From: Pirellulales bacterium
GTDB lineage: Bacteria; Planctomycetota; Planctomycetia; Pirellulales; S012-138
DNA length: 64,000 bases
Direction of reading: 5' to 3'
Assembly (NCBI GenBank): GCA_028066245.1
Contig: JALCBR010000008.1
Span: forward strand, 10,771-74,770
Shown here: positions 28,821 to 52,186 of the stretch, in pieces
Numbering within the stretch: the stretch's first letter is position 1
How the letters are laid out: each line of letters opens with the position of its first letter
The notes under the pieces: generated by a model
Databases searched by the model: none
What the model was told of the DNA's origin: nothing
What the model saw: the letters and a program-made list of their open reading frames with translations, nothing else
Translations under genes and position numbers: made by a program

Positions 28821-29221
28821 TGTGCGATCTCCGTATCGCTGGTTTCACTTGAACTGTTGGGTCCTGCTGGCCATGCGTAGATCGATGCGCGCACGGTTCT
28901 CGCTCACCGTTGGCCGAAGCGGCGGTACTATAGGAACGTCTTCTTTAAGGGTCAATGCGAATAGCAAGCACCCCCCGATGCCACGCAACGCTGATCCGTA
29001 ACGACATAGCATCCTGCGCGACGCGGCAGTTGGATAGCATTGGAAAAGGTCCGCCCGAAAGGCACGTCAGGAGGCGGTGTGCTGGTAGTGCTGTCACCGT
29101 TGGCAATTCCGAAGATCCGCGCAAAAAACTACTCAGCGCAATCACTGGATCACGCTGAGCAGGGACGGGTTGATTCCAGCAAGCCACATCGCAATGGTCG
29201 GCCGATCCATTTGGCAGCGGA

Positions 29222-32200
29222 TCAATACGCTGACTTGGCTTTGACGCCCTTATCTGTGTTGTTGTAGAGGTTCTCCAGGTTCTGCCGCTGCTGTTCAATG
29301 ATTATGCCGTTGCCGCCTTTCAACTGTTCGAGCAGTTTGACGTCAGCTTCCTCACTCGCTTGACCTTGCTGTTGAAGAACCTGACCGCCCGTTTGCACCA
29401 TGGGCGGGCCCAACTCCGTTTCACCGCGGAAGAATGCATAGCGACCGCTATCGGCTTGAGCGATGACCGTGGCTTGACCTGCAAGATTATCCGCCACGAA
29501 CACGCCGCGGAGGTCGGTCTCGCCAGAGACAATCTCCGGAGTGCGAGAACCGATGACCTTCACGTGCACATCTTTCAAGTAACGCCCAGAATCATTGTCT
29601 TTGACCGTCGCTCGCACGCGTCCGGATAACTGCTCTTCCTGAACCTCCAGTGTGAGCGGCGTGACAAGCACCAAGCCGGTGGCGTGTAAGTCATCCGCAC
29701 GGCACACAACCAGATACGCGCCCTCTTCGTCGAGCGGCAGGTCGAGTTCATGTTCCTTGTCCGCATAGTCCTTGCCATCACCCAAGGTGCTGGTGGACTC
29801 ATGCAGTGGCTTGATGCCTGCCAAGTTGATCTTGGTAACGTCATCTAAATCCCGCCGCAACAACCCGAACTTTGTCAGGTCGATACGATAGACCTTAGTA
29901 TCCAGCGACGCCACGTTGCGATAAGTGAGGTTGACCTTAGCGTCCTTGCCAGGCTCAAAAAACGAAACCTCCGGAAGTTCCGCTTCCTCGTGCGTGAAGT
30001 ACGCGATGGCCTGTGCGGCGTCCGCGAACTGCTCCTTCACCCGTTCGTACTCGTCGATTGCCTCTTTGGCTTTACCCAGGCTGTGATACACCTGTCCCAT
30101 GATGTACACGGCTTGCCATTTGTTGGGACTTTCCGTCTCCCTTCCAGAGTTGGCATCCATGCGCGTCGCTTCGGCCACCTTCTCGCACATCGCCAGAGCG
30201 TCTTCGTGTTCGCCTAGGGCGAAGTGACAATAACCAATCACGTACCAGAAGCTGTCGAGGTATTCGCTGTCATCATAGCGTTCCGCGTACCGATTACAGG
30301 CAGCGATGGCGGGACGGAAAGCTTCCAGCTCCAACAGCGCGTTGGCTGCGGAGAATGCCGCTTGCGCGGCTGCGGGATCATCCGGATAATGTGTGAGGAA
30401 TGATTCCAATCGTGTGAGCGCATCGCGAACAAGGTCCACGCCTAGGATATTCTCCTCGCGGAGTTCTGCATCAGCTTCCGCGGTAGGCGCTTTGGCATAA
30501 ATTCGCTGCGAGAGATAGTACGTCGCCGCCGCAACATAGGGTTCCGGTGGATACTCCATCAGCAGACGATCCATGACTTTCACGCTGCGGACGAACTCCT
30601 GCTGCGCTTCGAGGAAGCCCGCCACGCGGCTCTCGCGGGCAAAACTTCCCTCGACAGTTGCCCGGTACACGAGGTAAGCCCGTTCGTATTCGCCAACCTC
30701 TTCGTAGGCTTGGGCAACCCGGACAATCTTCTCAAAGGGAATTTCCTCGTCCGGGTAACGTTCCTTAACGATTTCAAACAAGCGAACGATCTCGGCCGGA
30801 CGGTTCGTTTGCAGGTTGACCTCCAACAGCATCAAAGCTGTCTCGCGATATGCATCGGCTCGTAGAGTCCAATTGGCGAAAAGGTCATCCAGGTATCTGC
30901 CAGCTTCGGCGTAGTTCTTCTTGGCGAAGTTCCGTTTGCCAAACTCAAACAATTCGCGCGGGCTCATGCGATACTCGTCCGCGCTGGCTTTGCCTTCTGC
31001 TAAGACTGTGAGTGTCTTGATCTTGGAGACGGCCAACGATTCCGGACGGTAGGCGTCGCGAACAATGGTGGGTCCAGCCTGGTAGACGCCCGGTAGGTAG
31101 CCGTGCACTTGGAAGCTAATCGTACCAATCGAACGTCGGTTACCGACAAAGAACGTAATGGAATCACTGGAGATCTCAAAGCGCTCAAAAGTTCCGCTGA
31201 TGCTGTCTTCAATCACTTGAACGCCTGCGGGGAGAGGCTCAGTGATAACCAGGTATTCCAGTTGCGAATCCGGCACGTTCGACGACAGGTTGTAGCGATT
31301 GACGTTCAGATGCACGATGCCGCGGTTCCCCTGGGGCAACTGTGTGAGGTTGTTGCGGAAGAACCGATAACGTTCGGCCACATCAAAGCCGCGCGGCACC
31401 TGGCGCCCGTCAAACTCCCTGGGAGCCGGCTCGTACTGACGTGTCACACGCCATTCTTGCGATGTGCTGGTGAGCTTTTCCGCAGGTACAAATCCAGAGA
31501 GCACGCACTGATAGGCGAAACGTCCTCGGCCAGTCATTTCAAAGTTGATCTGCTGCTTGCCATCCTGCAAGAGCTCGGTAGGTACTTGCACTCGTTGCGT
31601 AAGCGAGTCTTTGTCGACTTCGATCTCTTCAACCAATGCGTTGTTGACAAAGAGTTTGAGTGTATAGCGTTCGTGCTCGAACTGATTGCGGGCGTACCAG
31701 CCTGCCACTGCAGCGGTGGCTGGGCCAGTCGCTTTTTCCGGTGTCCACCGGGTTCCGCGACGATGCGTCATGAGCCATTCCACTTGCTCCTTCGCTTGTG
31801 GAGAACCGGGCGCGTATGCTTGCAGGGCCAATGCATACAGCGCGTGGAGCTCCACGGCGGAGTGACTCCACGGCAGCGAGCCACCGGCGACCTTACGCCG
31901 GGTCGTTGGAGTGTCCAAGTTCCGTTCCGCCAGCAGATCCAACAATTCGCTGGCCATTTGTCCGCGGTTCATTTCGATCAGAGCCAAGGCCAGGTGCGCC
32001 AATGCCGCGCTCGACAAGCTCGGACGGTTGCGATGCAACCGGTTGGCCAGCGCGAAATCACCTCGACCGGCAGCAGCCATGGCATGCAGCAATACGGCCT
32101 TGGTTTCGTAGTCGTTCTCAGAAACGGAGACAACGTGGTTAGCCAGGTAAGTCAGCGCACGATCGTGATTCTCATCAGGTACGCGGTAACCGCCCGACTT

Positions 32201-35200
32201 CGCTTCTGCCAGAGCCCAGACGGCTTGCGCAGTGGCGTATGCACTTCCGCGTCCTCCACGACCACTCCAACTCCAGGACCCGTCATCCTGCTGGGAAGCC
32301 ACCAGTGCACTGATGCTGGAACGAATGCGGCCATCCAGCGTTTGCGCCTCGACCGCTGTCGGCGAATCCGGTCCGCCGGCCAGGTTGCGTAGCGACAGCG
32401 CGGCCATCAATTCACTTGTTGTCACATCATGAGCGGAAGCGTAATTCAGGCAGAACTGCTGCACCGGAGTGGCCGGGCCCAGGATGATCTCCATGAGGTT
32501 CTGTTCGACACTGGGACCGACAACGATCTCCATTTTGCGGTCAGACAGCGGCATCTGCTTGTCTTGCTCGACCCAGGCAATCGTGTCGCTTTCCGCCGCA
32601 CCGCTGGCGGTCACAAATACGACTTCACCAAAGGGCGTGAGTGGAATGCTGCGTTGGACGGTATCCGTCAGGTCGCCGGAACGAACGATCAGTTCAAAGT
32701 CAATTGTGCTGTCGACCGTAGCGCCCTCAGGCAGCTTCACAGTCAAAGGGAAGTCAAACTGGCTGACGCCGGCTGCGGCTTCAATGGTTCGCTTCTCGCT
32801 GGTGGACTTGCCGCCGATGGTGGTCTTGAGTTCAAGCTCAACTTGCGTGTTGGCATCCGCGGCGACCATTTGGTTATGAACGGAGACCGCGATGCGTGCT
32901 TCGTCGCCCGATGTGAACGCAGCAGGCAGCTTGAGCTCGCCAAAGAGTTCTTTACTGGCGGTGAGTTCCGTTGTGGTTTCACCAGCCAGCGTGTCGGCCG
33001 TGATGCCCTTGGCTTGTAGCTGCCAGGCGGTGGAGCGGCTCGGTAGGGAGACCGTGATGGTCGCCTTGCCGTCCTCGTCTGTCACAATTGCAGGGCTCCA
33101 GTAACCGGTTTCCTGTATCGATCCTGGCTGCACAACAACCGCTCCATCCTCGGCAAGTTTTTCAGCCAACCGGCGGGTTGAATCCGGTCCCCGAGCCCAC
33201 ATGGTGCCGAGGTTGACGTTGGTTTGCCTGCCATCAGCAAACAAAACCGTGGCGTCTCTGTCTCCCCATTGATTGACGGCGGCCTTGTGGAAGTAGTCTA
33301 CGATAGTCGCCTTTGAGCTCTTGCCTTCAGTTATCAACAACGGTAGGTCCTGTAGCTGTTTTCCTGAGAGCTCGAAATAGTAGTTGGCACGTTCTCGGTT
33401 AAGGACCGCGTCGCCACTGAGATATCTCCGGGATTCAGCATCTGCAAGAAAGTCGGCACCGTCAGCCTGCCTGCGATCGAATCGTCCTCCGCCGCCACCA
33501 AGTCCACCGCCACCGAATCCGCCCGAACTCGGACGACCGAAGACTTGGAACGGCATATCCTGAGAATTGATACCGAAGCCGGTGGTTCCCCTCGCGTTTT
33601 CCTTGAATTGTCCATTGATGGCGACTTCGGCCTGCGGCTGCAGCGCGCTTTCCAGCGCCTGTTGCGCATCGTTGAACGGCCACGTGCCGGAGGAACGATC
33701 CCGGTCCATTTCAGCGGAAGCATTTGCGTCTGGGGGCACCGGTGTGGCCGTTCTGGCCAACGCTTCGCGATTTGGGTTGGGCGAATTGAAGGTCATCGCT
33801 TCCAGTCGCGATCTTTCCGCATGCGCCAGGGCGATACGGTCCGCCTCAGAGAGCAAGTCGGGATTAATTGCCTCTGTAGCCGGTCGGTAGTTAAACGTAA
33901 TGCTGGAGGTCGTTCGCACGGCCGCTTCACGAGGTTGACCTCGGAAGAAGCTGTCAATTTCTCCCTCTTGCCGATCGAACCGTTCGGCGAGCGCCTGCTC
34001 AACCATGCCCAGGCTTAATTTCGCGGAGACCGGCTTGCCTTGGTTGTTGGTGGTGGTGATGGTCACTTCGACATCGTCGCCCGGGCGGAGGTCGCCCTCT
34101 CCCGCGGCACGCTTGGTTTCCATGGTGACGCGTAAATCGCGGGCAACGACGAATGGGCTTTCCGCGGTGTGAAATCGTTGTGGTGGAACGAGTGTCTCTA
34201 TCGCCAACTCAGCTTCCGCCTCAGTGGTGGTGCTTTTGGCTTCGCGGATGTCTTGCATGACCGCCACGGAGAGTTGGAAGTTAGGGGCCAGTTCGGCCGA
34301 CATGGGCATTGTCAATTCGTTGTCGCCGGTGGCTAGTCGCACAATTTGGTACTTCAGCACACGCGCGCCTTGATAGGTGATCAAGGCCAACGTTGGTTCC
34401 TCGCGCCAGTGCAAGTTGACCTTGGCGTCATCCCCCACTTTGTAACTATGCTTTTCCGCCAGGATGCGGAGCCGAACACCATCGGTGTCGTCAGAAACAT
34501 TGACGAGAGAACTGCCGGTGATCGATTTTTCAAAACGGTCAATGCCGCTTGCACGCAGCATGTACTGCGCACCGTCGTCCAAGTTTAGCGTGATCGTGGC
34601 CTTGCCAGTCTCGGCATCGGTGGTTAACTCGTGCGTGTTGACGGTCGTCTCACCCACGCGGTTGCTGCCTGGGCTTCGCGTTCGCTTGAGCACGCTGAGC
34701 GTGATGTTTTCCGCCAATGGTTTGCCTTCGGCATCGCGAGCCGTGACAGTAGCTTCAAACGATTCTCCCGCCAAGTACGTGGCCGATGCGCGGGACGTGG
34801 CTACATCCAGCGAGAAGCCCTGCGTGGCGATGATGAAGTTTCTCTGCACGGCAATGCCGAGTTCGTTCAATTGAGCCGTAAACGCGACGATCTGAGATTC
34901 ATCCAGTTCGCGCGTTTCCAAGCGGAAAGGAACACGCCCTTGGGCGTCAGTCGTCGCCGTTTGTGAACGGCCATCCAGATCGGTATAGGTGATTTGTTTG
35001 CTGGCGACCGGCGCGCCGTAATAGTACTGGGCGAGAATCTCGCCTTCGATGACTTCTCCGCGGTAGTAAACCGCGCGATCGGTCTCGATGGTTAGTTGCA
35101 CCGGTTCTAGCTTGAACTCGGCCACGGTAAACACACCGGCGTACTGTTGTGGAGATTGACCTAATGCTGGATTGGATTCAACCAACGCAAGCCGATACGC

Positions 35201-37765
35201 GCCTTGCGCGGCTTCCGGGGGCAGCGTAACTTGGGTGTGGAACGCGCCGAACTCGTCAAGTTGGACTGCTTCTTCAGACAAGCTGCGGCCGCGGGCGTCA
35301 AAAACCTCCAGCGAGAATTCTTGATCCGCGTTGATCGCGTAGCGGTCATCCTCGACGTCGCGAACAACGCCGCGAATGTGGACGAACTCGCCAGGACGGT
35401 AAATCGGTCGATCCGTGTAGATATAACCTTTTTCTGTCAAACCTTGGGCGACGCCAATTCCGTCCAGACTGATGATGTTGCTGGCGACGTGACCATCTGA
35501 AACGGCAAACACGCGAACGTCGTTGGCGCCTTGCAGTTCGTCATAGGTGCCTTGATAGACGCCGTCCTCTCCTGTTTCCACCTCTGCAAACACCGTCGAG
35601 CCGTCGGAGATCAACAGGCGAACATCAGGCCAAGCTTCACCGGTGCGCATGTTCTGAGCGAACACGAAGACTTCATCACGCGAGCTTTTGACGATCACGT
35701 CCAGGTCACTTTGGATGACCAAGGTTGTGGCTTCCAGCTTGCCTTCGGAGACTGTCACGGCCATCACTTGAGGCTGGCGTTCGACATCGCCTTCGCCGTC
35801 TTTGCGAATGGCTACGCTCGACTGGAATTGCTGATATTTCTGATAGTCAGAAACGGGAAAGGAAAAGCGGCTATCGGGATCGATCAGCGCGACATCGAGG
35901 TTCTCCACCCCGCGAGCCAAGTGCATCTTGCGAAAGTAGGTCTCCAAGTCGATGCGGTATGCGCTCACATCGACAGACTCCACGTTGCGCGAAATCAGAT
36001 CCACGGCCGGATCTTCATCCGTACGATACACTCGCGTGGTAGCAATGGTCATTTCCGTTTGTGTCAGCGCCGCGTGGCGGACCGCAGCGTGGGGCGCATA
36101 TTCGCCATATTTGACCAGGGCATATTCCTTTAAGGCGTCTTCCAGCCGGCCAAGCTTTGTCTCCAAGGTCATGGCGATCATGAACTGAGCGCGCGACGCT
36201 TCGTTGGAGCCGGGATACTTGGAGACAACAGTCCGCCAAGCCTCAATCGCCTTCTCAAACTCGTCCTGCAGAAACTCCATTCGGCCAAAGTCAAACAGGA
36301 TCAGTCGGCAGCGGTCTTCCAGCGGGTGTTTACGGAGGAATTCGTCCCACAAGCTGCGGGCCGCCTGGTAGTCTTCTTCCGCCAGAGCTTCCTGGCCTTG
36401 CAGGTATTCGGTGTCGATGATCATTCGCTGCACGGAGGTCCATTGACCGTGCGCGGGGTGCTTGGCCAAGTAGTCAGTCCAGGCTGCTAGAGCTTCCTTA
36501 AATTTCTTTTGCGCTTGATAAGCCTGGCCCAACAGCACGCGGGCTTCTGGTGTTCGTTCATCTTCCGCATAGGCGTCATTCGCCAGAAACTGCTGCAATT
36601 CCTCAATGCCGGACTCCCATTGACCGCGGGCAAAGAACGAACGGGCGATCTGTAGTTGCGCATTGGGGGCGAGCTCGTCGTCTGGATGTTCAGCCAGGAA
36701 TGTGCGCAGCTCGGCCACACCTAGGTTCAACGCTTCATCGGTTTGCGGCTGCGGGAGACCGAACGTATGTGCAATCCGGTAACGCAGAGCGTTCATCCTT
36801 ACGCCCTGCAGGTCGAGTTGTGGTGAGGCCGGGTCGTCAATCTTCGCGTCTTCGTCAGGTTCGGCAGGGGCGGAGATGGAGCCATCGGTCACCTTAGCCA
36901 GCAAGTCCTGCCAAGCTCGGCGCGCTGGTCTGGGCGATCCCTGCGCCATGTAGCATTCACCAAGCCGGTAGCGGGCTACTGCGTTCAAGCCGTGTTCCGG
37001 ATGTGTTTTGATAAACCGCTCTAAACGGTTGATTGCTTCTTGGGGATTACCAAGCAGTTGCAAGCAGCGGGCAATCCGCAGTTCAACTTGTTCTTTCCGT
37101 TCCGCTGCAGGGCCAACCTCCATCGCTTGCTGATAGAACTCGAACGCTTTGGCATAGTTGGGGTCCGTTGACTCTTTCTCCGGGTGGAAATAGAGATCGG
37201 CAAATTCCAGGTAGATGGCGGCGATCTCCTGTTTCCGTTCCGCACCCAACAGATACTCAGCTTCGGCTCGGTAGATCTGCTCCGCGGAGCGGTAGTTGCC
37301 TTTCCGCATATAGGCGATGGCCGCGGCAAACCGTGCCTGACGAAGCCAAGAACTGTCTGGATGTTGCGTTTCCAATTCATTGAAGGCCGCGATTGCTTCG
37401 TCATACTTTTCCGCCAAAGCGAAGGCCCGACCCTTGAGGTATTGGAAGCGGTCAGCGTGTTCTTTGTCTGCGGACATGGCCGCGTCCAGTGCCGCTTGAG
37501 CTTCCTCATATTTGCGATCCTGCAGCAATGCCCGGACTTCTTTCGGCAGCTCTGGTTGTGTGCCGAGGATCTGAGAGGTCAGCGGCTGCGACGGCTTGCC
37601 TTGCTCTTGATTCCAGATGGCGTTGCGAGCTATCGCTCCCAATGGGAGGCCGAGCGCAAACAAGACGCCGAGGAGAAGGATTCTCCGTCCGCGGCTGCGC
37701 TGTGGTTGTCGAGTTGACTTATTGTTAACGGGATTCGATTGCAGGCGAATCAGACGCTGGCTCAT
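29222..37765 (-). CDS. giant TPR / alpha-2-macroglobulin-family / TPR / CarboxypepD_reg-like protein
   Basis: The start at 37765 (MSQRLIRL) is preceded by AAGGAG; the ORF is open to 37873. MG-domain motifs are YIYTDRPIYRPGEFVHIRGVV and FTVAEFKLEPVQL...AQYYYGAPV. A TED-like region reads YATAQAVWALAEA. TPR arrays lie on both sides. The C-terminal part is RVRATVKDNDSGRYLKDVHVKVIG. Confidence 0.8.
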   Translation of the reverse strand: MSQRLIRLQSNPVNNKSTRQPQRSRGRRILLLGVLFALGLPLGAIARNAIWNQEQGKPSQPLTSQILGTQPELPKEVRALLQDRKYEEAQAALDAAMSADKEHADRFQYLKGRAFALAEKYDEAIAAFNELETQHPDSSWLRQARFAAAIAYMRKGNYRSAEQIYRAEAEYLLGAERKQEIAAIYLEFADLYFHPEKESTDPNYAKAFEFYQQAMEVGPAAERKEQVELRIARCLQLLGNPQEAINRLERFIKTHPEHGLNAVARYRLGECYMAQGSPRPARRAWQDLLAKVTDGSISAPAEPDEDAKIDDPASPQLDLQGVRMNALRYRIAHTFGLPQPQTDEALNLGVAELRTFLAEHPDDELAPNAQLQIARSFFARGQWESGIEELQQFLANDAYAEDERTPEARVLLGQAYQAQKKFKEALAAWTDYLAKHPAHGQWTSVQRMIIDTEYLQGQEALAEEDYQAARSLWDEFLRKHPLEDRCRLILFDFGRMEFLQDEFEKAIEAWRTVVSKYPGSNEASRAQFMIAMTLETKLGRLEDALKEYALVKYGEYAPHAAVRHAALTQTEMTIATTRVYRTDEDPAVDLISRNVESVDVSAYRIDLETYFRKMHLARGVENLDVALIDPDSRFSFPVSDYQKYQQFQSSVAIRKDGEGDVERQPQVMAVTVSEGKLEATTLVIQSDLDVIVKSSRDEVFVFAQNMRTGEAWPDVRLLISDGSTVFAEVETGEDGVYQGTYDELQGANDVRVFAVSDGHVASNIISLDGIGVAQGLTEKGYIYTDRPIYRPGEFVHIRGVVRDVEDDRYAINADQEFSLEVFDARGRSLSEEAVQLDEFGAFHTQVTLPPEAAQGAYRLALVESNPALGQSPQQYAGVFTVAEFKLEPVQLTIETDRAVYYRGEVIEGEILAQYYYGAPVASKQITYTDLDGRSQTATTDAQGRVPFRLETRELDESQIVAFTAQLNELGIAVQRNFIIATQGFSLDVATSRASATYLAGESFEATVTARDAEGKPLAENITLSVLKRTRSPGSNRVGETTVNTHELTTDAETGKATITLNLDDGAQYMLRASGIDRFEKSITGSSLVNVSDDTDGVRLRILAEKHSYKVGDDAKVNLHWREEPTLALITYQGARVLKYQIVRLATGDNELTMPMSAELAPNFQLSVAVMQDIREAKSTTTEAEAELAIETLVPPQRFHTAESPFVVARDLRVTMETKRAAGEGDLRPGDDVEVTITTTNNQGKPVSAKLSLGMVEQALAERFDRQEGEIDSFFRGQPREAAVRTTSSITFNYRPATEAINPDLLSEADRIALAHAERSRLEAMTFNSPNPNREALARTATPVPPDANASAEMDRDRSSGTWPFNDAQQALESALQPQAEVAINGQFKENARGTTGFGINSQDMPFQVFGRPSSGGFGGGGLGGGGGRFDRRQADGADFLADAESRRYLSGDAVLNRERANYYFELSGKQLQDLPLLITEGKSSKATIVDYFHKAAVNQWGDRDATVLFADGRQTNVNLGTMWARGPDSTRRLAEKLAEDGAVVVQPGSIQETGYWSPAIVTDEDGKATITVSLPSRSTAWQLQAKGITADTLAGETTTELTASKELFGELKLPAAFTSGDEARIAVSVHNQMVAADANTQVELELKTTIGGKSTSEKRTIEAAAGVSQFDFPLTVKLPEGATVDSTIDFELIVRSGDLTDTVQRSIPLTPFGEVVFVTASGAAESDTIAWVEQDKQMPLSDRKMEIVVGPSVEQNLMEIILGPATPVQQFCLNYASAHDVTTSELMAALSLRNLAGGPDSPTAVEAQTLDGRIRSSISALVASQQDDGSWSWSGRGGRGSAYATAQAVWALAEAKSGGYRVPDENHDRALTYLANHVVSVSENDYETKAVLLHAMAAAGRGDFALANRLHRNRPSLSSAALAHLALALIEMNRGQMASELLDLLAERNLDTPTTRRKVAGGSLPWSHSAVELHALYALALQAYAPGSPQAKEQVEWLMTHRRGTRWTPEKATGPATAAVAGWYARNQFEHERYTLKLFVNNALVEEIEVDKDSLTQRVQVPTELLQDGKQQINFEMTGRGRFAYQCVLSGFVPAEKLTSTSQEWRVTRQYEPAPREFDGRQVPRGFDVAERYRFFRNNLTQLPQGNRGIVHLNVNRYNLSSNVPDSQLEYLVITEPLPAGVQVIEDSISGTFERFEISSDSITFFVGNRRSIGTISFQVHGYLPGVYQAGPTIVRDAYRPESLAVSKIKTLTVLAEGKASADEYRMSPRELFEFGKRNFAKKNYAEAGRYLDDLFANWTLRADAYRETALMLLEVNLQTNRPAEIVRLFEIVKERYPDEEIPFEKIVRVAQAYEEVGEYERAYLVYRATVEGSFARESRVAGFLEAQQEFVRSVKVMDRLLMEYPPEPYVAAATYYLSQRIYAKAPTAEADAELREENILGVDLVRDALTRLESFLTHYPDDPAAAQAAFSAANALLELEAFRPAIAACNRYAERYDDSEYLDSFWYVIGYCHFALGEHEDALAMCEKVAEATRMDANSGRETESPNKWQAVYIMGQVYHSLGKAKEAIDEYERVKEQFADAAQAIAYFTHEEAELPEVSFFEPGKDAKVNLTYRNVASLDTKVYRIDLTKFGLLRRDLDDVTKINLAGIKPLHESTSTLGDGKDYADKEHELDLPLDEEGAYLVVCRADDLHATGLVLVTPLTLEVQEEQLSGRVRATVKDNDSGRYLKDVHVKVIGSRTPEIVSGETDLRGVFVADNLAGQATVIAQADSGRYAFFRGETELGPPMVQTGGQVLQQQGQASEEADVKLLEQLKGGNGIIIEQQRQNLENLYNNTDKGVKAKSAY

Positions 37766-37971
37766 GTCCTCAAGCTCCTTGGTACCATGAATGCGCAGGC
37801 TTACCTTGGATGCCCCCTTGCTCTGACGCCTGCTTGTAAGAATAGTTTCCCATTCTGAGGAAAATCTTGGCAAGCTAAGATTCGCTGGCCGTTACAAACC
37901 TGTTGCGCGCCGCCTGGGTAGAAGTGTACGAGAATCCGGAATTTGGCGAGAATTCTGGCCGAGTGCCCATA

Positions 37972-38013
37972 AGAAAAGCCCCCTGGCCGCACGCAGCAAC
38001 CAAAGGGCTTTCT
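37972..38013 (-). terminator. groEL terminator candidate
   Basis: The minus strand reads AGAAAGCCC...GGGCTTTTCT with an imperfect extended stem and a U-rich tail. It lies 22 nt after the groEL stop. Confidence 0.5.
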
Positions 38014-38034
38014 GTTTGAAACAACGGTCAACGA

Positions 38035-40106: not shown

Positions 40107-40471
40107 GGCTGGGAAACCCTCCGGGGTCAAACGAGTTTGAATGGTTGTGCTCTGGAAACGATTGTCCGGACAAACGCGAAATCGGGATGCTCAAGATGAC
40201 TCCGCGATTTGTTTGCGATTTCAGGTGAATTGGTTCTCGAAGGATTGAACCATTTTACCTGCCAAAAAGCGCGTACTCCGCGCCAGAATGTGCCCATTAA
40301 GCAAGTGGTGCGCCAAGAGTCCATGGGCGACCTAAGTTACTTGCATAAAACAACTTGTAGCCTATTGTCTCTTGCGCGAACTTTGGCACCGAGAGCCTGT
40401 CATTTTGGCAGCGCCAAGCGTGAGCTAATAGGTAGAATATGCGGGTTCTGGAATGTGGCCCCTCGTGTGAG

Positions 40472-41104
40472 ATGAGCATGTCGAAGGAAAGTCAAATTCC
40501 TCCCTGGGTATCGGTCGAGGCAACCAAAGCGTTGAACCAAGCCACTGCCGAAGGCGAGTCACAGAAGATCGAATTCAAAGAAATAGTCCCTTCGAACGGA
40601 CACGATTTGGCGAAAGAGATTGCAGCATTCGCAACATCTGGCGGCGGGAAAATCTACATCGGAGTAGCAAAGACAGGAGTCGTCATAGGGCTGGAAGCGG
40701 TTGAAACCTCTGAGGCGCGTGAGCAGCTCTGCGACCGGATACAGGGAATCGCTGCATCAGGTGTTGTTCCTGCTGTAAGAAACGTCATATCGACATTCGC
40801 ATCGGACGACGGGAAACACGCGATTTTGATTGACGTGCCGAAACAAAATGCACCCATCTATTATGTGTCACATAAACCATACTTAAGAGATGGAGCATTA
40901 TCACGACCCGCTACGCCTGAAGAGGTGATTGATTTAGTGTGGTCTCATGGAAGCTCTGCTCACAGACGCAAGTTGGAAGAGCTCAAAGAGAAAATGTTCG
41001 AGCAACAACTTGAATCGCAGGCCAAACACGACGAAGAGGCCCGCGAAATGCTCAGATCGTTTCACGAAACAAACGAACGAATTCGGTCGCGCTACATTCC
41101 CTAG
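40472..41104 (+). CDS. AlbA_2 (Schlafen-type divergent AAA/DNA-binding) domain protein with coiled-coil tail
   Basis: ESQKIEFKEIVPSNGHDLAKEIAAFATSGGGKIYIGV...AILIDVP is typical of the AlbA_2 domain. The ORF is open from 40439. Confidence 0.55.
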   Translation: MSMSKESQIPPWVSVEATKALNQATAEGESQKIEFKEIVPSNGHDLAKEIAAFATSGGGKIYIGVAKTGVVIGLEAVETSEAREQLCDRIQGIAASGVVPAVRNVISTFASDDGKHAILIDVPKQNAPIYYVSHKPYLRDGALSRPATPEEVIDLVWSHGSSAHRRKLEELKEKMFEQQLESQAKHDEEAREMLRSFHETNERIRSRYIP

Positions 41105-41143
41105 ACCCTGGGAACCGCTGCTGCGGGCCGGTACAGTCGAAGT

Positions 41144-43177
41144 ATGACTCAGCACAGCAGTCGACGGCGGTATCGCGAGTATCGCGAGAGTGTGAAGGAG
41201 CGGCGGCTGAAACGGCGCGGCAAATCCGCTGCGGTCGATGACCAGGCCACAGGTTCTTCCGCCGGGACCGACAAACCGACCGAAGCGAAACCGTATACAG
41301 GCGGCAAGGACGAGTATGCACGAATCACTCGTAAGCCGACGCGACCGGTTGGGCAGTTGCTCAAGCGGTTCTTCCAGCTTTTGCGCGGTAACCGTGGCGC
41401 AGTCGCGTTCTCGCTCGCCACATTGACCGTTGCCACGCTCTTAGGTTTGATCCCCCCGGCGGCCACCAAGGTTGCCATTGATTATGTGCTTCCTGGCAAC
41501 CCACTGCCGGTTGAGGATGTCGCTGGGTTTCAAATTCCTACGGACCCGATGACCAGGCTGTGGCTGATGGCCGCCGTGGTCACTGTGATCTCGCTGGGCG
41601 GCACGCTGATCCATGTGTGGGGGCGGTGGCACGCCACCAAGACTGTCAATCGCGTGCAGGTCAAAGTTCGCCGCGATGTCTTCCGGCACACTTTGAGATT
41701 GCCGTTACATCGGATTTATGAACTCAAGTCCGGCGGCTCTGCCAGCTTGCTCCGTGAAGACGCCGGCGGCGCGGCCAGCCTGATCTTCAGCATGGTCTAC
41801 AATCCTTGGCGAGCGGTGATCCAGTTCTTGGGCAGCCTGCTGGTTTTGTTTTGGGTGGATTGGCGGATGATGCTGGGAGGAATGCTGCTGTTGCCGGCGG
41901 TGTTCATCACGCATCGCACTTGGATTAATCGCATCCGCCCGCTGTATCGAGACATTCGTGCCCGACGGCAAGATATCGATAGCCACGCTACAGAGACTTT
42001 CGGTGGCATGCGCGTGGTGCGCGTCTTCGGTCGGCAAAATACGGAGACCGGCCGCTTCGTCCGCGGCAACCATCTGATGGTTCGCCAGGCGCTGCACGTT
42101 TGGTGGTGGTCGCGGATCATCGAAATCATTTGGGAAGTTTTCATTCCGCTGGCATCCACTGGGCTGCTGCTCTACGGCGGATACGCCATCATGCAGGGAA
42201 GCTTGACGCTGGGCGACTTAATGATGTTTTTGTTCTACCTGGCGATGTTGTTGGGTCCGCTGGCGACGCTCGCCGCCAGTGCGACAACCTTCCAAAACAA
42301 CTTGGCCGGGCTGGACCGGATCTTGGATCTGTTGGATGAGCCGCGCGAAATGGAATCCACCGGCCAAACCATCCAGGTCAGTAAACAGTCCGCCGCCGGC
42401 AAGGTGGAACTTCGCAATGTCAGCTTCCGCTATCCGGAAAACGAAACCTGGGTGCTACGCGAAGTCAGCTTCACTGTTGAGCCAGGAGAGACAATTGCGC
42501 TCGTGGGACGGTCCGGAGCAGGCAAGACAACGATGTGCAACCTGATTGCCCGTTTCTTCGACCCGACCGAAGGTAAGATCCTGTTTGATGGTGTTGATCT
42601 GCGCGAGATCGATGTCGATAGCTACCGCCGGTTACTGGCGATGGTCGAACAGGACGTTTTTCTCTTCGACGGGACGATCGCGGAGAACATCGGCTATGCT
42701 CGCCGGGGCGCGGAGTTGGACGACATTCAACGAGCGGCGGCAGCGGCCAACGCCGCGGAGTTTATCTCCGCGTTTCCGCAAGGCTACGAAACGCGGATTG
42801 GCGAACGCGGCGTCAAGCTCAGCGGAGGGCAGCGGCAGCGGATTGCCATCGCCAGGGCCATTTTGGCCGATCCCACAATGCTGATTTTGGATGAAGCGAC
42901 CAGCAACCTGGACAGTGAAAGCGAACGATTGATCCAAAACAGCCTGCAGGAATTGATGTCACATCGGACGTCGTTCGTGATTGCTCACCGCCTGAGCACG
43001 ATCGCCCACGCGGATCGGATCATCGTCATCGAAGATGGGCGGATTGTAGAAACCGGCACTCACGAACAGCTCATGGCCGCCAGTGGGCATTATCGCCGGA
43101 TGGTCGAGATCCAGGTGGGAAAAGTCTCGCTGGAAGATGGCAATACGGTCAACTCGGGCCGACAGATGGTCGAATGA
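41144..43177 (+). CDS. ABC transporter, fused permease/ATPase (MsbA-type exporter)
   Basis: Six-helix TMD, Walker A GRSGAGKTT, signature LSGGQRQR, Walker B MLILDEATS, and an approximately 70-aa basic N-terminal extension. Confidence 0.9.
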   Translation: MTQHSSRRRYREYRESVKERRLKRRGKSAAVDDQATGSSAGTDKPTEAKPYTGGKDEYARITRKPTRPVGQLLKRFFQLLRGNRGAVAFSLATLTVATLLGLIPPAATKVAIDYVLPGNPLPVEDVAGFQIPTDPMTRLWLMAAVVTVISLGGTLIHVWGRWHATKTVNRVQVKVRRDVFRHTLRLPLHRIYELKSGGSASLLREDAGGAASLIFSMVYNPWRAVIQFLGSLLVLFWVDWRMMLGGMLLLPAVFITHRTWINRIRPLYRDIRARRQDIDSHATETFGGMRVVRVFGRQNTETGRFVRGNHLMVRQALHVWWWSRIIEIIWEVFIPLASTGLLLYGGYAIMQGSLTLGDLMMFLFYLAMLLGPLATLAASATTFQNNLAGLDRILDLLDEPREMESTGQTIQVSKQSAAGKVELRNVSFRYPENETWVLREVSFTVEPGETIALVGRSGAGKTTMCNLIARFFDPTEGKILFDGVDLREIDVDSYRRLLAMVEQDVFLFDGTIAENIGYARRGAELDDIQRAAAAANAAEFISAFPQGYETRIGERGVKLSGGQRQRIAIARAILADPTMLILDEATSNLDSESERLIQNSLQELMSHRTSFVIAHRLSTIAHADRIIVIEDGRIVETGTHEQLMAASGHYRRMVEIQVGKVSLEDGNTVNSGRQMVE

Positions 43178-45046: not shown

Positions 45047-47581
45047 ATGTCTGTTGCTCTCATGGGACCGATCGAATTGCTGATGATCATGCTCATGGGC
45101 GGTAGTGTGCCCGTAGTCATGCCTCCTTTGCCGGCGGATGCGGGGATGATGAGCGTTGCGCCGTCAGAGTGCCTGTTCTATACGAGCTGGTATGGCATCG
45201 ATGATCCTCAGCAAGGTAGCGGCAATTCCACGGAAGCGCTGATGGCGGAACCGCAAGTACAGCAATTCTTGCAGATGATCGGCCGTGGGATTGAATCGAT
45301 GTTGGCCAGTGAAGACGCTCCACGAGATATGCGGGAAGGCGCGGCGATCTTTCTGCCGTTGATCAAGGATCTCTATCAGCGACCCGCCACGCTCTATGTT
45401 TCAGATGTCGAGCTGAGCGCTGTTGGGGCTTCCGTGGACGCAGCGATTGTTGTTCATTGTGGTGATCGTCGGGAAGCTCTGGTGGGTCACATGCAGAAGA
45501 TCGAAGCTCTGTTTGCGTCCTCGACCAATATGCCGGTCAACGAGATACAGCGCTCTGGCGTTGCTTTCCGCAAGTTCATGCTTCCGCCCGAAGCGCCCGA
45601 GATTGGCTGGGGAGTCTCTGGTGACTACTTGATCTTTTCCGTCGGCAGCGAGGTCTTTGACGGTGTCATTCAACGGACCAGCGCGAAGCCAGGTCCTGCT
45701 CCATGGTTGAAGGAGATGCACGCCAGCCTTGACGTAGCACGTCCCGGGTTCGTGCAGTATGTGAATGTGGCAAAAGTAATTGAATCAGTGACGATGCTAA
45801 TGCCATTTGGCGCTGACGAAGTGCACGCGACGATTCAACATCTTGGCCTCAACAGCATCAGTCACATGGCCACCATCCAGGGATATGATGCAGATAATGT
45901 GGTCAGCAAAACGCAAATTGCAACAACCGGCCCGCCGCAAGGTGCTCTGCAATTGCTCGCGGGAGAGCCGCTTTCACCATCTGACTTGCAAGATATCCCG
46001 GCTGATGCAAATCTGGCGTTTGCGCTGAAGATGGACCTGAACGCCAAAGCGGATCAGCTTGTTCGCCTTGCTGGTGCAATCGATCCGAACGCAGGGGCGG
46101 AGTTAGAGCGCGGCATGGCGGAGTTGAGTCGAGAAGCAGGGTTTGACATCCGAGAGGAGCTGTTGGATCCGCTCGGCGGAGTGTTTCGCGTATACAACTC
46201 GCCCGGTTCAGGCGGACTCATCGTGAGCGGGTTGACGATGGTTGCTGATGTGGATGACCATGCGCGATTGCATGCCACGCATGAGAGGATACTCGCCAAC
46301 ATGCGGCGTTCTTTCAAACACTACGGAGAAGGCGTTGGCCTCAGCACGTTGGATTTTGAAGGCATGAGCGTGCATACGCTATCTTTGGGAACGGAAACAC
46401 CGATTGCTCCCTCTTGGTGTTTGACGGAGAACCGGGTTGTCATTGGCCTGTATCCGCAATCTGTCAAGGCGTTCCTTTCACGAGACAGCGCCGAGCCGAG
46501 CTTGGCTGACAACCCTCAGATTCAGGCGGCATTCGCTGGCGATGATCCGCCCTATATGGTGAGCTATCAGGACACGCAAGACCTGATGCGGACGCTCTAT
46601 CCGTTGGTGCAGATGGTGACACCCATCTTGGCAAGTGAACTACGAAGGGATGGCTTTGAGTTTGATATCGCCGCGCTTCCCTCGGCCAATGCCATTTTGC
46701 CTCACATGACGCCCGGTGTGACAACTTGCACCGTGACAAGTGATGGGCTGATCTTTGAATCGCAACAATCTGTACCAGGCTTGTCCGCCCTGCCTGTTTT
46801 GGCGGTGCTTGGCATTGGCGTGGTGGCAAATACTGAGGAAGGGATCATCGACCTGGGCCCAGCCTACCCTGAGGCTCAGAACAACCTGCGGCAAATCGCC
46901 ATCGCGATGCACAACCATCACGACGTCAATGGCCGATTGCCTGCGGCAGTGAACGCAAACGCCAACGGCAAGCCCCTGCTGAGTTGGCGCGTGCACCTGC
47001 TTCCCTACCTTGAGCAACAAGCCTTGTACGAGCAGTTCCGCCTGGACGAGCCATGGGACAGCGAACACAACAAGACGTTGATTGTGCAGATGCCAGAGGT
47101 ATTCAATTCGCCCGGCGGCGCCGAGTTAGATGAAGGAATGACTTCAATTGTCGTGCCCACTGGAGATGAAACGATCTTTCCGATTGGCGGCGGCGGCCCT
47201 GGAAAAGGACTCTCCCTTTCCTCCATTCGTGATGGAACATCAAACACCGTGATGATTGTGGAAGCCGCGCCGGAGAATGCCGTGATTTGGACAAAGCCGG
47301 ACGATTGGAGATTTAACGCGGACAACCCGACAAAAGGTTTAGTTGGACACCGTCATGGCGGATTCCTGGCCGCGTTTGCAGACGCTCACGTGGCATTGAT
47401 CAGTGCAATAGTCCCAGCCGAGACGGTCAAGGCCATCTTCACACGTGACGGCGCAGAGCCGGTCGATGCATCCATGCTGGAAGATGGCCGAGCTGGCGAT
47501 TTCGACCGAGCCGTTCCTCCACCTGTCTTCTATGATGGTGGGGACGTGAAGGCGGTTGACCTCATCTTCGTTGGTGGGTGA
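45047..47581 (+). CDS. 844-aa protein: unknown N-terminal domain, internal pilin-like hydrophobic helix, C-terminal DUF1559/H-X9-DG domain
   Basis: GAGGA lies 6 nt before the ATG. The C-terminal part reads NNLRQIAIAMHNHHDVNGRLPA...LSWRVHLLPYLEQQALYEQF...SSIRDGTSNTVMIVEA...HRHGGFLAAFADAHV. Confidence 0.8.
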   Translation: MSVALMGPIELLMIMLMGGSVPVVMPPLPADAGMMSVAPSECLFYTSWYGIDDPQQGSGNSTEALMAEPQVQQFLQMIGRGIESMLASEDAPRDMREGAAIFLPLIKDLYQRPATLYVSDVELSAVGASVDAAIVVHCGDRREALVGHMQKIEALFASSTNMPVNEIQRSGVAFRKFMLPPEAPEIGWGVSGDYLIFSVGSEVFDGVIQRTSAKPGPAPWLKEMHASLDVARPGFVQYVNVAKVIESVTMLMPFGADEVHATIQHLGLNSISHMATIQGYDADNVVSKTQIATTGPPQGALQLLAGEPLSPSDLQDIPADANLAFALKMDLNAKADQLVRLAGAIDPNAGAELERGMAELSREAGFDIREELLDPLGGVFRVYNSPGSGGLIVSGLTMVADVDDHARLHATHERILANMRRSFKHYGEGVGLSTLDFEGMSVHTLSLGTETPIAPSWCLTENRVVIGLYPQSVKAFLSRDSAEPSLADNPQIQAAFAGDDPPYMVSYQDTQDLMRTLYPLVQMVTPILASELRRDGFEFDIAALPSANAILPHMTPGVTTCTVTSDGLIFESQQSVPGLSALPVLAVLGIGVVANTEEGIIDLGPAYPEAQNNLRQIAIAMHNHHDVNGRLPAAVNANANGKPLLSWRVHLLPYLEQQALYEQFRLDEPWDSEHNKTLIVQMPEVFNSPGGAELDEGMTSIVVPTGDETIFPIGGGGPGKGLSLSSIRDGTSNTVMIVEAAPENAVIWTKPDDWRFNADNPTKGLVGHRHGGFLAAFADAHVALISAIVPAETVKAIFTRDGAEPVDASMLEDGRAGDFDRAVPPPVFYDGGDVKAVDLIFVGG

Positions 47582-47643
47582 ACACCTCACGGTCTGAAGA
47601 CCCCCAACTCAGAGCATCGGCAAGAGGTGATCACGGCGTTCTA

Positions 47644-47679
47644 TTCGGTGATATCTCTGCATTCGGTGATATCTCTGCG
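47644..47679 (+). repeat. 18-bp tandem direct repeat x2 (TTCGGTGATATCTCTGCR)
   Basis: Read directly from the sequence. Each unit contains the palindrome GATATC. It lies in the AT-rich spacer upstream of the prepilin-like gene. Confidence 0.85.
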
Positions 47680-48098
47680 CACGACCAGCATGCCAACACA
47701 GTTGGCGGTGACTCTCGTGTTAAACTCTCGTTTTCGATTAGACCATCATTGAGTTTGGTGAATATATTAAAAAATTATTTTCTATTTAATATCCATCCAT
47801 TGGGGGGCACCAGTGAAAGTTCTTATTGGCATTGCTGTGCTGTAACGCATTGCCGAAGTGGGTGTTTGAGCGAAGCAATGAGATTAATGCAAGTACTGTC
47901 TTAGCGCATATGTTTTATCTGGATGTCGTGTCAACTCAATTTTTGAGTTCTGCGAGCCCGTGCGAGGCTTGATAGGCGACATGCGACACCAGAGGTTGCT
48001 ATTATGCGATTTTTGTCGTTGTCATAACTTGCTTCTTTTGCTGTTGTGCAACGTCAATTTTTTAGTTTCTTTCAGTTGCGAACAGAGAAGAGAGTAGC

Positions 48099-49022
48099 AT
48101 GAAGAAGCGTGGATTTACGTTAGTCGAATTACTGGTGGTGATTGCGATCATCGGCATCCTGATTGCGCTTTTGCTTCCAGCCATTCAGGCGGCGCGTGAA
48201 GCAGGGCGGCGAATGGACTGCTCATCCAAGTTGCACAACATGGGCTTGGCATTCCACAACCATCACGATGTTATTGGCTACTTGCCCACCGGGCACGGCA
48301 TATATTCGACGGGCTTGTTGAACCATATTCAGCCATACATGGAGCAGCAGAGTTCGACCGCGGCCTACAAGATCATTCATCCAGATTGGTTTTCACAGAA
48401 TGCCGGTCTTAGCCCGACCACATGGATTTCAATCGATAGTGCTTGGCAGGCGTCTCAAGCACGCTATGAGGTCTTTATCTGTCCTTCCGTCGATCCTAGT
48501 GCCCAAGATGCCCCCAAGATGTGGATGATGGAAATCGAACCGGGCACCGATACTGTGGACATGATTCCTGGTACAGACGGTAGTAGCGACGCTCCAGGCC
48601 TCGCTTCATACACCGCTTGTGCTGGTTCCGGATTTCACGGCATCGAGCGTATCAATGACCTCTTTGGAGATTTCAGTGAGGGTGTATTCACCATCAAACG
48701 CAAAAAATCCTTCAGCGACATCCTGGATGGCACCAGCAACACGCTGGCAATTGGTGAGTATATGGGAAGTCAAATCAACAATCGGCAGTGGGAGTGGACG
48801 CCAAGTTGGATGGGTGCCATTAAGATGTCCAGCAAGTTCACTCCTTGGAATCAGATTGGCAACGCCCCGATAGATCGATTCAGCAGCCCCCACCCACAAA
48901 TCACTCAGTTCGCCCTGGCTGACGCGTCGGTTCGACCGATTCGCAATTCCGTTTCCCATACCGTGTTCGTCTACGCCAACGGAATTCGGGACGGCTTGGT
49001 TGCCAACTTGAACGACTTCTAG
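48099..49022 (+). CDS. prepilin-type N-terminal methylation motif + DUF1559 (H-X9-DG) pseudopilin-like protein
   Basis: [55 protein letters not shown], with C-terminal [11 protein letters not shown]. Confidence 0.9.
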
Positions 49023-51915: not shown

Positions 51916-52186
51916 ACGAAGACTCAGTTCGAATCTGATAAACCGCGTGATATTCCAAACGGGGCGCAAGCTGCGCGAAGACACCCCTTCAACAGAACCA
52001 CCACTGTGCGTCACACCGGCGTTTGCCCAACTTCACCATGTATTCTCGCGGAGCGAGCATTTCTTGCAATGGGACCAGCGAACGCGGCATTTCTCGGAGA
52101 ATGCCAGCCGATGTTTGACCTCACCCCAAAGCCAGACTTGCCGGGCAGACCGATGCTCGGCTTGCAGTGAGCCGGAACGTCAGGGG

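Follow-up and report, generated by a model that had tools for sequence, protein, structure and literature searches.

A macroglobulin flanked by TPR modules

We analysed a window of 64,000 nucleotides from a Pirellulales bacterium (contig JALCBR010000008.1, positions 10,771 to 74,770 of the forward strand), in which the longest open reading frame (ORF) of the region holds a gene for a protein that joins two arrays of tetratricopeptide repeats (TPRs) to the body of an alpha-2-macroglobulin (A2M). The probable start codon is an ATG at 37765, with a Shine-Dalgarno sequence (AAGGAG) 8 nucleotides (nt) upstream, and the resulting product of 2847 amino acids (aa) is identical to a database protein, P0001, from a Pirellulales bacterium metagenome-assembled genome (MAG). 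The GC content is 55-58% throughout the window, and the composition shows no break at the A2M gene. The features of the gene and its product are listed here from the N-terminus to the C-terminus.

29222..37873, minus strand: longest ORF of the region
29222..37765, minus strand: whole gene for the probably exported TPR-A2M-TPR protein, 2847 aa, with its stop codon at 29222-29224
37628..37765, minus strand: predicted N-terminal signal peptide, approximately aa 1-46, with a long basic n-region, the hydrophobic core ILLLGVLFALGLPLGAI and then A-I-A, as read from the sequence
36056..37558, minus strand: TPR array 1, approximately aa 70-570 (Pfam TPR_16, TPR_6, YfiO)
33866..36043, minus strand: N-terminal macroglobulin (MG) body, aa 575-1300 (Pfam, PDB profiles, colinearity with YfaS), with approximate boundaries: NIE-like sandwich 575-693, MG1/bMG3-type domain 694-775, MG2 779-880, MG3/4 885-975, a further MG domain 980-1095, and the bait-region domain (BRD)/MG5-6 region 1099-1300
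33131..33865, minus strand: hypervariable insert, aa 1301-1545 (245 aa), between the A2M_BRD and A2M Pfam domains, with the Gly run SSGGFGGGGLGGGGGRF at aa 1413-1429
31001..33118, minus strand: MG7 (aa 1550-1645), CUB (1646-1750 and 2030-2100), thioester domain (TED, an alpha/alpha toroid; 1753-2028) and MG8/bMG10 (2101-2255), from Pfam, AlphaFold and Foldseek
32423..32464, minus strand: neighbourhood of the former thioester, aa 1768-1781, sequence VQQFCLNYASAHDV
29990..30973, minus strand: TPR array 2, approximately aa 2265-2592 (Pfam ANAPC3, TPR_1, TPR_8; helices in the AlphaFold model)
29408..29986, minus strand: two C-terminal beta-sandwiches, aa 2594-2702 and 2704-2786 (model, Foldseek, hhalign)
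29225..29407, minus strand: low-complexity linker and then the C-terminal helix motif LLEQLKGGNGIIIEQQRQNLENLYNNTDKGVKAKSAY, aa 2787-2847

The domain order is thus signal peptide, TPR, NIE/MG1-MG6, Gly-rich insert, MG7, CUB, TED, MG8, TPR, two sandwiches and a C-terminal helix. In outline, this is the order that a first-pass annotation had read from the letters and their translation, and its MG, BRD, A2M and TPR parts are confirmed by Pfam. TPR families match across approximately residues 76-560 (TPR_16, E 1e-27) and again at 2448-2585 (ANAPC3, TPR_1 and TPR_8); between them lie matches to bMG3 (686-756, E 7.6e-10), MG2 (779-864, E 2.4e-24), MG3/MG4 (890-967, weak), A2M_BRD (1099-1259, E 3.4e-12), the A2M family that corresponds to MG7 (1555-1642, E 3.1e-15) and bMG10 (2165-2242, 23 bits, which is below the cut-off). 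Similarly, profile searches of the PDB matched the MG2 region of ECAM, Sa-A2M, human A2M, C3 and CD109, and matched TPR array 1 to designed TPRs, YbgF (2xev) and CpoB (6g5s). TPR array 1 is also covered by repeated NCBIfam matches to the short YbgF and BamD TPR models; NCBIfam holds no family-specific model for the protein, and repeated short TPR models are all that match. Every peptide quoted in the first-pass annotation is found in the protein: YIYTDRPIYRPGEFVHIRGVV at 781-801, FTVAEFKLEPVQL at 879-891, YYYGAPV at 914-920, SSGGFGGGGLGGGGGRF at 1413-1429 and QQFCLNYAS at 1769-1777.

On the evidence of profile comparison, the two ends of the protein are an internal duplication of a TPR array followed by an NIE-like sandwich. 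When the family profile of aa 60-700 was compared by hhalign with that of aa 2258-2800, the two matched with a probability of 99.1% (E 6.7e-19), and the aligned region spans the TPRs and continues into the first sandwich (VYRIDLTKF... against AYRIDLETYF...), with aa 2595-2708 placed on 575-693. Thus, the protein can be written as a TPR-NIE-like module, an A2M body and a TPR-NIE-like-MG-like module. An AlphaFold model of aa 2258-2800 (pLDDT 83.9) has helices at model residues 12-334 and strands at 337-444 and 447-528, which form two beta-sandwiches, and Foldseek matched this model to the MG0-NIE-MG1 (4zjg, E 6.7e-8) and NIE-MG1 (4zjh, E 9.1e-8) domains of ECAM, besides generic TPR proteins. The first-pass annotation had placed a CarboxypepD_reg-like beta domain at the end of the protein. 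The beta fold is indeed there, but as two sandwiches instead of one, with their match to ECAM NIE-MG1, and CarboxypepD_reg itself (PF13620, at 2717-2772 in the second sandwich) scores 19.5 bits and does not reach its cut-off of 32.3; the domain is better read, from the model, as an MG-like sandwich.

The last residues form a motif of their own. The C-termini of 60 orthologs share LLEGLQ..N..IQ..Q...L..Y....GV.A..A[F/Y]-COOH, a motif of approximately 40 residues with an aromatic end that lies behind a Pro/Ala-rich linker and is present in nearly all orthologs, and this helix could be an oligomerisation or sorting element. Two orthologs (P0096 and P0118) carry an extra ~110-160 aa past the last beta-sandwich that look by eye like secretin N0/STN domains; these segments had no Pfam match at E≤1e-3, and a BLAST comparison with an insert of another ortholog, P0092 (see below), was not significant.

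The hydrophobic N-terminus had been called an anchor in the first-pass annotation. Its hydrophobic core spans 17 residues (29-45), with A-I-A directly after it, but an anchor is the less likely role: the orthologs begin with classical Sec signal peptides that are short and have AxA sites, and just 2 of 120 show anything like a lipobox; the window protein itself has no lipobox Cys. The stretch is probably a cleavable signal peptide, not an anchor, and the protein is probably exported to the periplasm.

Comparison with known macroglobulins

Type II bacterial A2Ms are defined by the lack of CXEQ, a retained bait region and a six-gene mag operon, and their representative MagD traps proteases non-covalently after cleavage of the bait (PMC5764988). 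We compared the family with both bacterial types using a core profile that covers aa 572-2262. Against E. coli YfaS (Type II), the core profile scored 170.5 bits (E 3.5e-54), with colinear blocks (profile positions 87-702 on YfaS 232-835, 118 bits, and 880-1011 on YfaS 862-988), compared to 58.1 bits (E 2.7e-20) against ECAM (Type I). The MG7 domain alone yielded a similar result, with 50 bits for YfaS versus 11 bits for ECAM. Since both the core and the MG7 scores favour YfaS, the 13-domain body almost certainly belongs, by these profile scores, to the thioester-less Type II (YfaS/MagD) lineage. The first-pass annotation had set the protein apart from both known kinds; the gene contexts of both kinds are indeed missing (see below), but the core groups with YfaS/MagD by sequence and is not outside both.

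The protein resembles Type II macroglobulins in that it has no CxEQ, a colinear series of MG1-MG8, CUB and TED domains, a probable signal peptide for export and a loop at the bait position. It differs in being ~1300 aa longer, due to the two TPR arrays and an extra NIE/MG pair, in the length of its bait-position insert (110-468 aa among orthologs versus a few dozen), in an apparent restriction to Planctomycetota and in having no six-gene mag/yfa operon, with no homologs of YfaA, YfaT or YfaQ within 10 kb in the window or at 85 ortholog loci. With the Type I proteins (ECAM/YfhM and Sa-A2M) it shares the fold (5a42, 4ziu and 4u48, E 1e-27 to 1e-26), terminal sandwiches that are similar to ECAM MG0-NIE-MG1 and a probable place in the envelope, but it does not have the CLEQ thioester, lipoprotein anchor or pbpC neighbour, and the sequence similarity is weak (58 bits). 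The features of the A2M/C3 superfamily as a whole are all present, namely an MG series with MG2, a BRD-loop-MG7 arrangement, and a TED within CUB followed by MG8. The MG7-CUB-TED-MG8 unit is shared with eukaryotic A2M, C3, CD109 and TEP (the top Foldseek match is native bovine C3, E 1.9e-28) and the MG2 region aligns with human A2M and A2ML1, but the Pirellulales protein has none of the thioester, anaphylatoxin, C345C and tetramerisation features of the eukaryotic proteins and has TPR flanks instead.

The TPR arrays are of the same subtype (TPR_6/TPR_16/YfiO) as those in CpoB/YbgF and BamD. CpoB/YbgF is a protein of ~260 aa with an N-terminal coiled coil and one TPR domain, encoded with tol-pal. 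The Pirellulales protein differs from it in size, in its A2M body and in its genomic context, and the TIGR02795 (CpoB/YbgF) score of 149.5 bits, although above the cut-off, is a sum over 5 repeated stretches of a 119-position TPR model, so that these are matches to a repeat model and not orthology. The name ‘Tol-pal system protein YbgF’ given to some orthologs is an annotation artefact of the same origin, with five repeat-model stretches in 2847 aa and no tol-pal genes nearby. We found no description of a planctomycetal or TPR-fused A2M in the literature searched, in line with the first-pass view that the architecture was not recognised as characterised.

The TED was the part of the body for which sequence searches failed: it was not seen by Pfam, by phmmer against the PDB or by a profile of 24 orthologs against the PDB, which reached MG2, MG7 and generic TPRs. 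Since sequence profiles missed this domain, a comparison of folds was needed. An AlphaFold model of aa 1545-2262, built from a 12-sequence alignment (pLDDT 79.2, pTM 0.77), consists of beta-sandwiches, approximately 12 helices (model residues 209-482) and further beta-sandwiches. In a Foldseek search of the PDB, the model matched native bovine and human C3 and C5, native ECAM (5a42, 4ziu), the Salmonella A2M 4u48, A2ML1, CD109 and TEP1 with E values from 1.9e-28 to ~1e-25 over more than 700 columns, across MG7, CUB, TED and MG8. Native forms are a better fit to the model (TMq 0.53-0.65) than activated ones (0.27-0.40). At the level of the predicted fold, these matches confirm the MG7-CUB-TED-MG8 assignment, and the TED-like region of the first-pass annotation, which profile searches fail to recover, is supported by the structural matches at E~1e-28.

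To examine the former thioester site, we counted residues by column in a MAFFT alignment of 120 full-length orthologs. CxEQ occurs at the TED in none of the 120 orthologs and not in the window protein; the sole C.EQ is a CPEQ elsewhere in one ortholog. The first-pass annotation had reported the loss of CxEQ and had placed the site at Cys1772, whose codon, TGC, lies at 32450-32452 exactly as it gave. Both the loss and the coordinates are right, but the site is imprecise, and Cys1772 is lineage-specific: it occurs only in the window protein and a relative that is 74% identical. Most orthologs instead have P-x-C-Q-hydrophobic-E/D at positions equivalent to 1768-1771, which are encoded at 32453-32464 in the window (Cys in 105/120, Gln in 100/120, an acidic residue in 92/120), and the window protein and its relative have V/L-Q-Q/R-F/Y at 1768-1771 and then Cys1772, with the motif Cys lost.

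The position that corresponds to the thioester of ECAM lies slightly further on. In E. coli ECAM, CLEQ begins at residue 1187, in ...KELKAYPYGCLEQTASGLFPSL..., and a global hhalign alignment, whose local confidence is low, places it on A1778-H-D-V1781, where the family has G-L-[E/D]-[T/S] with an invariant acidic residue (1780). Canonical thioesters sit at the N-terminus of the first long TED helix, and in the DSSP assignment of our model this helix starts at model residue 234, which is aa 1778. The equivalent of CLEQ is therefore most likely A1778-V1781, 6-10 residues downstream of Cys1772, an assignment from alignment and model to which we attach low confidence; two further registers are conceivable and neither gives CxEQ. 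On this reading, the CQ motif would lie in a family-specific insertion of approximately 10 residues just upstream of the CLEQ equivalent. The Gln is kept in most of the orthologs that lack the motif Cys (15/120), and the presence or absence of Cys across 11 Cys columns is correlated among all of them, which is a phylogenetic signal. We therefore find no evidence for a coupled reactive pair. Similarly, no specific disulfide partner could be identified for the conserved Cys, since all Cys columns correlate mutually.

A check for a bait region, called for by the first-pass annotation, located a hypervariable loop exactly between the BRD and MG7. The column conservation of this insert (0.11-0.34) is the lowest in the protein, compared to 0.6-0.8 elsewhere, and its length ranges from 110 to 468 aa among the 120 orthologs. 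It is enriched in Gly (11.8% versus 7.2% overall), with a GGG run in 63/120 orthologs. A Pfam search at E≤10 of nine inserts, including that of the window protein, found no domain. In YfaS, the gap between the equivalent aligned blocks is only ~27 residues. One ortholog, P0092 (4167 aa), has at residues ~1290-2760 Secretin_N domains (Pfam E 7e-55) and GspD-like N0 repeats in both variable loops of MG6, the bait position included; these insertions may link the family to secretin-type periplasmic assemblies, or they may be an assembly chimera. The idea, suggested by P0092, that the inserts in general are degenerate Secretin_N domains was dropped, as the search of the nine inserts gave no support for it.

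Distribution, conservation and genomic context

The family appears to be restricted to Planctomycetota. We collected more than 120 full-length homologs of 2700-3100 aa and 45-75% identity from Pirellulales and Pirellulaceae MAGs and from cultured Blastopirellula, and in a scan with one genome per GTDB species, at least 182 species carry the family. All of these have Planctomycetota labels (Pirellulales, Pirellulaceae, Thermoguttaceae, Blastopirellula, Pirellula) bar one contig. That contig (JABMRB010000032.1, locus L070) is labelled Candidatus Nealsonbacteria and has a full match to the C-terminal module at 57% identity; almost certainly, it comes from a planctomycete and was mis-binned. When the C-terminal module served as the query of an exhaustive HMMER search, 678 clusters at 50% identity were recovered (E≤1e-30), and the best 150 of these 678 have the identical architecture or are fragments thereof. 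Some genomes have two copies (for example, loci L014/L062 and L036/L077). The orthologs are named in databases as ‘tetratricopeptide repeat protein’, ‘Tol-pal system protein YbgF’, ‘YfaS/TolA-binding protein’ or TolA-binding protein, generic or misleading names that conceal the macroglobulin core.

Conservation is highest in the TPR2/NIE module and the junction regions (0.79-0.81), and the TED and all MG domains are also well conserved (0.6-0.8). The conservation of the TED and MG domains points to selection on the whole machine, not on the TPRs alone.

The A2M gene of the window lies downstream of groES-groEL and is followed by genes for a SurA/PrsA-like peptidyl-prolyl isomerase (PPIase) and a PilM-like protein and by two ORFs with no Pfam match. 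A hairpin and a promoter-like site, both detected by scan, separate the A2M gene from the PPIase gene.

29129..29162, minus strand: terminator-like hairpin with a 15-bp stem and then TTTTTT, ~60 nt past the stop codon of the A2M gene
28955-28927, minus strand: promoter-like site ahead of the PPIase gene

On the other side, just past the groEL stop codon (37985-38025, minus strand), we noted by eye a GC-rich but imperfect hairpin, AAGCCCTTTGG...CCAGGGGGCTT, with TTTCTT behind it, which escaped the terminator scan on account of a loop of more than 8 nt. This hairpin suggests that groEL and the A2M gene are separate transcripts.

The first-pass annotation had taken the groESL and SurA-like genes as a clue to function, a suggestion that does not survive comparison with other genomes. 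The PPIase is a neighbour at none of 85 ortholog loci, the PilM-like gene and the ORFs with no match are likewise never neighbours, and GroEL is found only in the contig of the nearest relative and in one Thermoguttaceae contig. The neighbours of five orthologs that we examined individually were all unrelated, and when flanking ORFs were clustered, no family was common to more than 7 of 83 loci. A proteostasis operon is accordingly rejected, given these counts and the terminator-like hairpin between the genes. The first-pass statement that neither a pbpC nor a mag/yfa context is present holds well beyond the window: when the window and the 85 loci (1.44 Mb) were searched by tblastn for E. coli PbpC, YfaQ, YfaT and YfaA, there were no matches, and a Pfam scan of the window neighbours found no pbpC, mag or tol-pal genes nearby. 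The first-pass annotation had also considered that orthologs might retain CxEQ and a pbpC neighbour, as in an ordinary ECAM-type A2M, and none of 120 has CxEQ at the TED and none of 85 loci has PbpC. The A2M gene stands alone, and its neighbours say nothing about its function.

Several other genes of the window drew our attention in their own right. The PilM-like protein (703 aa, in the minus-strand segment 19905-26283) scores above the cut-off for TIGR01175 (pilM) and at 219 bits for Amuc_1101, whose cut-off is 650, and it is followed by two ORFs (583 and 810 aa) that neither Pfam nor NCBIfam recognises; the three may form a divergent pilus or secretion assembly cluster. At 49294-52014 (minus strand) lies a 906-aa YidC homolog (60KD_IMP, E 1.5e-44) with a periplasmic PDZ domain (PDZ_6, E 1.2e-10), an unusual pairing, and at 13487-17806 (minus strand) a 1439-aa hybrid histidine kinase with an N-terminal ETR1_N domain (E 1.7e-8, ethylene-receptor-like), multiple PAS domains, two receivers and an Hpt domain. 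A Schlafen/AlbA_2 protein (221 aa) is encoded directly upstream of an ABC exporter (677 aa) at 40439-43177 (plus strand), divergent from groES. Finally, two DUF1559 (SBP_bac_10) proteins, one of which has an N-terminal methylation (type IV pilin-like) motif, are encoded at 45047-49022 (plus strand); Planctomycetes typically encode DUF1559 proteins, and further members of this family lie close to several of the A2M orthologs (at loci L001 and L005, for example).

Candidate functions of the family

The protein is, with near certainty, an exported and probably periplasmic member of the A2M/C3 superfamily, with a duplicated TPR-NIE module at its two ends and encoded by a stand-alone gene. With respect to function, we tentatively favour, with somewhat less than even confidence and by analogy with MagD, a non-covalent periplasmic protease trap that would be docked through its TPR modules. 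The first-pass annotation had proposed a periplasmic protease trap or scaffold with TPR docking modules, which is still a sensible candidate reading. A stray or invading endopeptidase would cut the hypervariable loop, which is long and disordered, at the bait position, and the cut body would collapse around the protease and hold it non-covalently, as has been demonstrated experimentally after bait cleavage for MagD, a Type II A2M (PMC5764988). By binding to partners in the envelope, the two TPR modules would hold the trap in position or make it more stable, and they may thereby supply in cis what MagA/B/F, or a lipid anchor with PBP1c, supply in trans elsewhere. We favour a trap because the trap body is complete and conserved, its predicted arrangement is native-like and a hypervariable loop lies at the bait position. 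The further proposal of a third architectural class of bacterial macroglobulin, in which a stand-alone thioester-less trap has docking fused in cis as a duplicated TPR-NIE module and a hypervariable bait of 100-470 residues, and in which protease defence would be tied directly to envelope machinery in Pirellulales, is possible but rather doubtful.

A number of observations weigh against the trap. The insert is several-fold longer than known baits (the YfaS gap being ~27 residues). The folded Secretin_N and N0-like domains that P0092 has in the same loops imply that the position may be merely a permissive loop or an interaction site. It is the TPR2/NIE module and not the trap core that is most conserved, which fits a scaffold as well as a trap. 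The gene has no conserved neighbours that would point to a partner. Pirellulales are mostly free-living, and the threat from proteases is thus hypothetical.

The main rival to the trap, and a real possibility in our view although we would not bet on it, is a planctomycetal envelope scaffold, in which the A2M body would be a rigid, non-trapping spacer and the TPR-NIE modules, the C-terminal helix and the variable loops would bring in partners, for instance machinery of the peptidoglycan, outer-membrane or secretin type. Such a role would be consistent with the peak of conservation in TPR2/NIE and the junctions, with the duplication of the TPR-NIE module at both ends, with the secretin-type domains that P0092 has in its MG6 loops and with the conserved C-terminal helix motif; the lack of a thioester, the lack of a defence-type or operon context and the great length of the bait-position insert point in the same direction. 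Against the scaffold, a full colinear A2M body with a native-like CUB-TED-MG8 arrangement is kept under purifying selection, a hypervariable loop lies at the exact bait position, as in functional traps, and the secretin-domain insertion occurs in 1 of 120 orthologs, typical inserts having no such domain. A further candidate is a secreted or surface-exposed adhesin or nutrient-capture protein acting beyond the periplasm, where its TPR and MG domains would attach to polymers or to other cells. We consider this unlikely. The protein has a probable signal peptide and no membrane anchor, its C-terminal motif with an aromatic end behind the Pro/Ala-rich linker could be a sorting or attachment signal, and Planctomycetes encode many giant surface proteins, but neither Pfam nor NCBIfam detects a PEP-CTERM, T9SS CTD or autotransporter domain, and the periplasm is the usual location of both TPR_6/YbgF/BamD-type repeats and bacterial A2Ms (PMC5764988).

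A covalent trap with a non-canonical reactive centre, in which the conserved Cys-Gln would form or replace the reactive bond and the window protein would be a derived member whose Cys has moved by four residues, seems very improbable. The frequency of the two residues (105/120 and 100/120), their location within 10 residues of the CLEQ equivalent and the Cys retained one helical turn away (C1772) in the window protein and its nearest relative are all in keeping with it. Nevertheless, by established chemistry an adjacent Cys and Gln should be unable to form the 15-membered thiolactone of CxEQ, the Gln persists in most Cys-less orthologs with no pairwise dependence, the Cys is missing entirely from 15 of the 120, and its presence tracks phylogeny like that of all other Cys.

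The building blocks and the likely mechanism of this family are already known; what is new is a gene that stands alone, TPR-NIE caps at both ends, a giant insert at the bait position and the CQ motif. Bacterial macroglobulins have been described as two kinds that are defined in part by their operons (pbpC for Type I, mag for Type II), and this family, which is abundant in hundreds of Pirellulales lineages, fits neither. The family is thus of relevance to research on both bacterial macroglobulins and the planctomycetal envelope. If it does trap proteases, then the thioester-less mechanism would be widespread outside the host-associated Proteobacteria, in a system with an unusually long bait, and the fused TPR modules could serve as handles with which to isolate the docking partners. 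If it does not, then an A2M body would have been co-opted as an envelope scaffold in a phylum of unusual cell biology.

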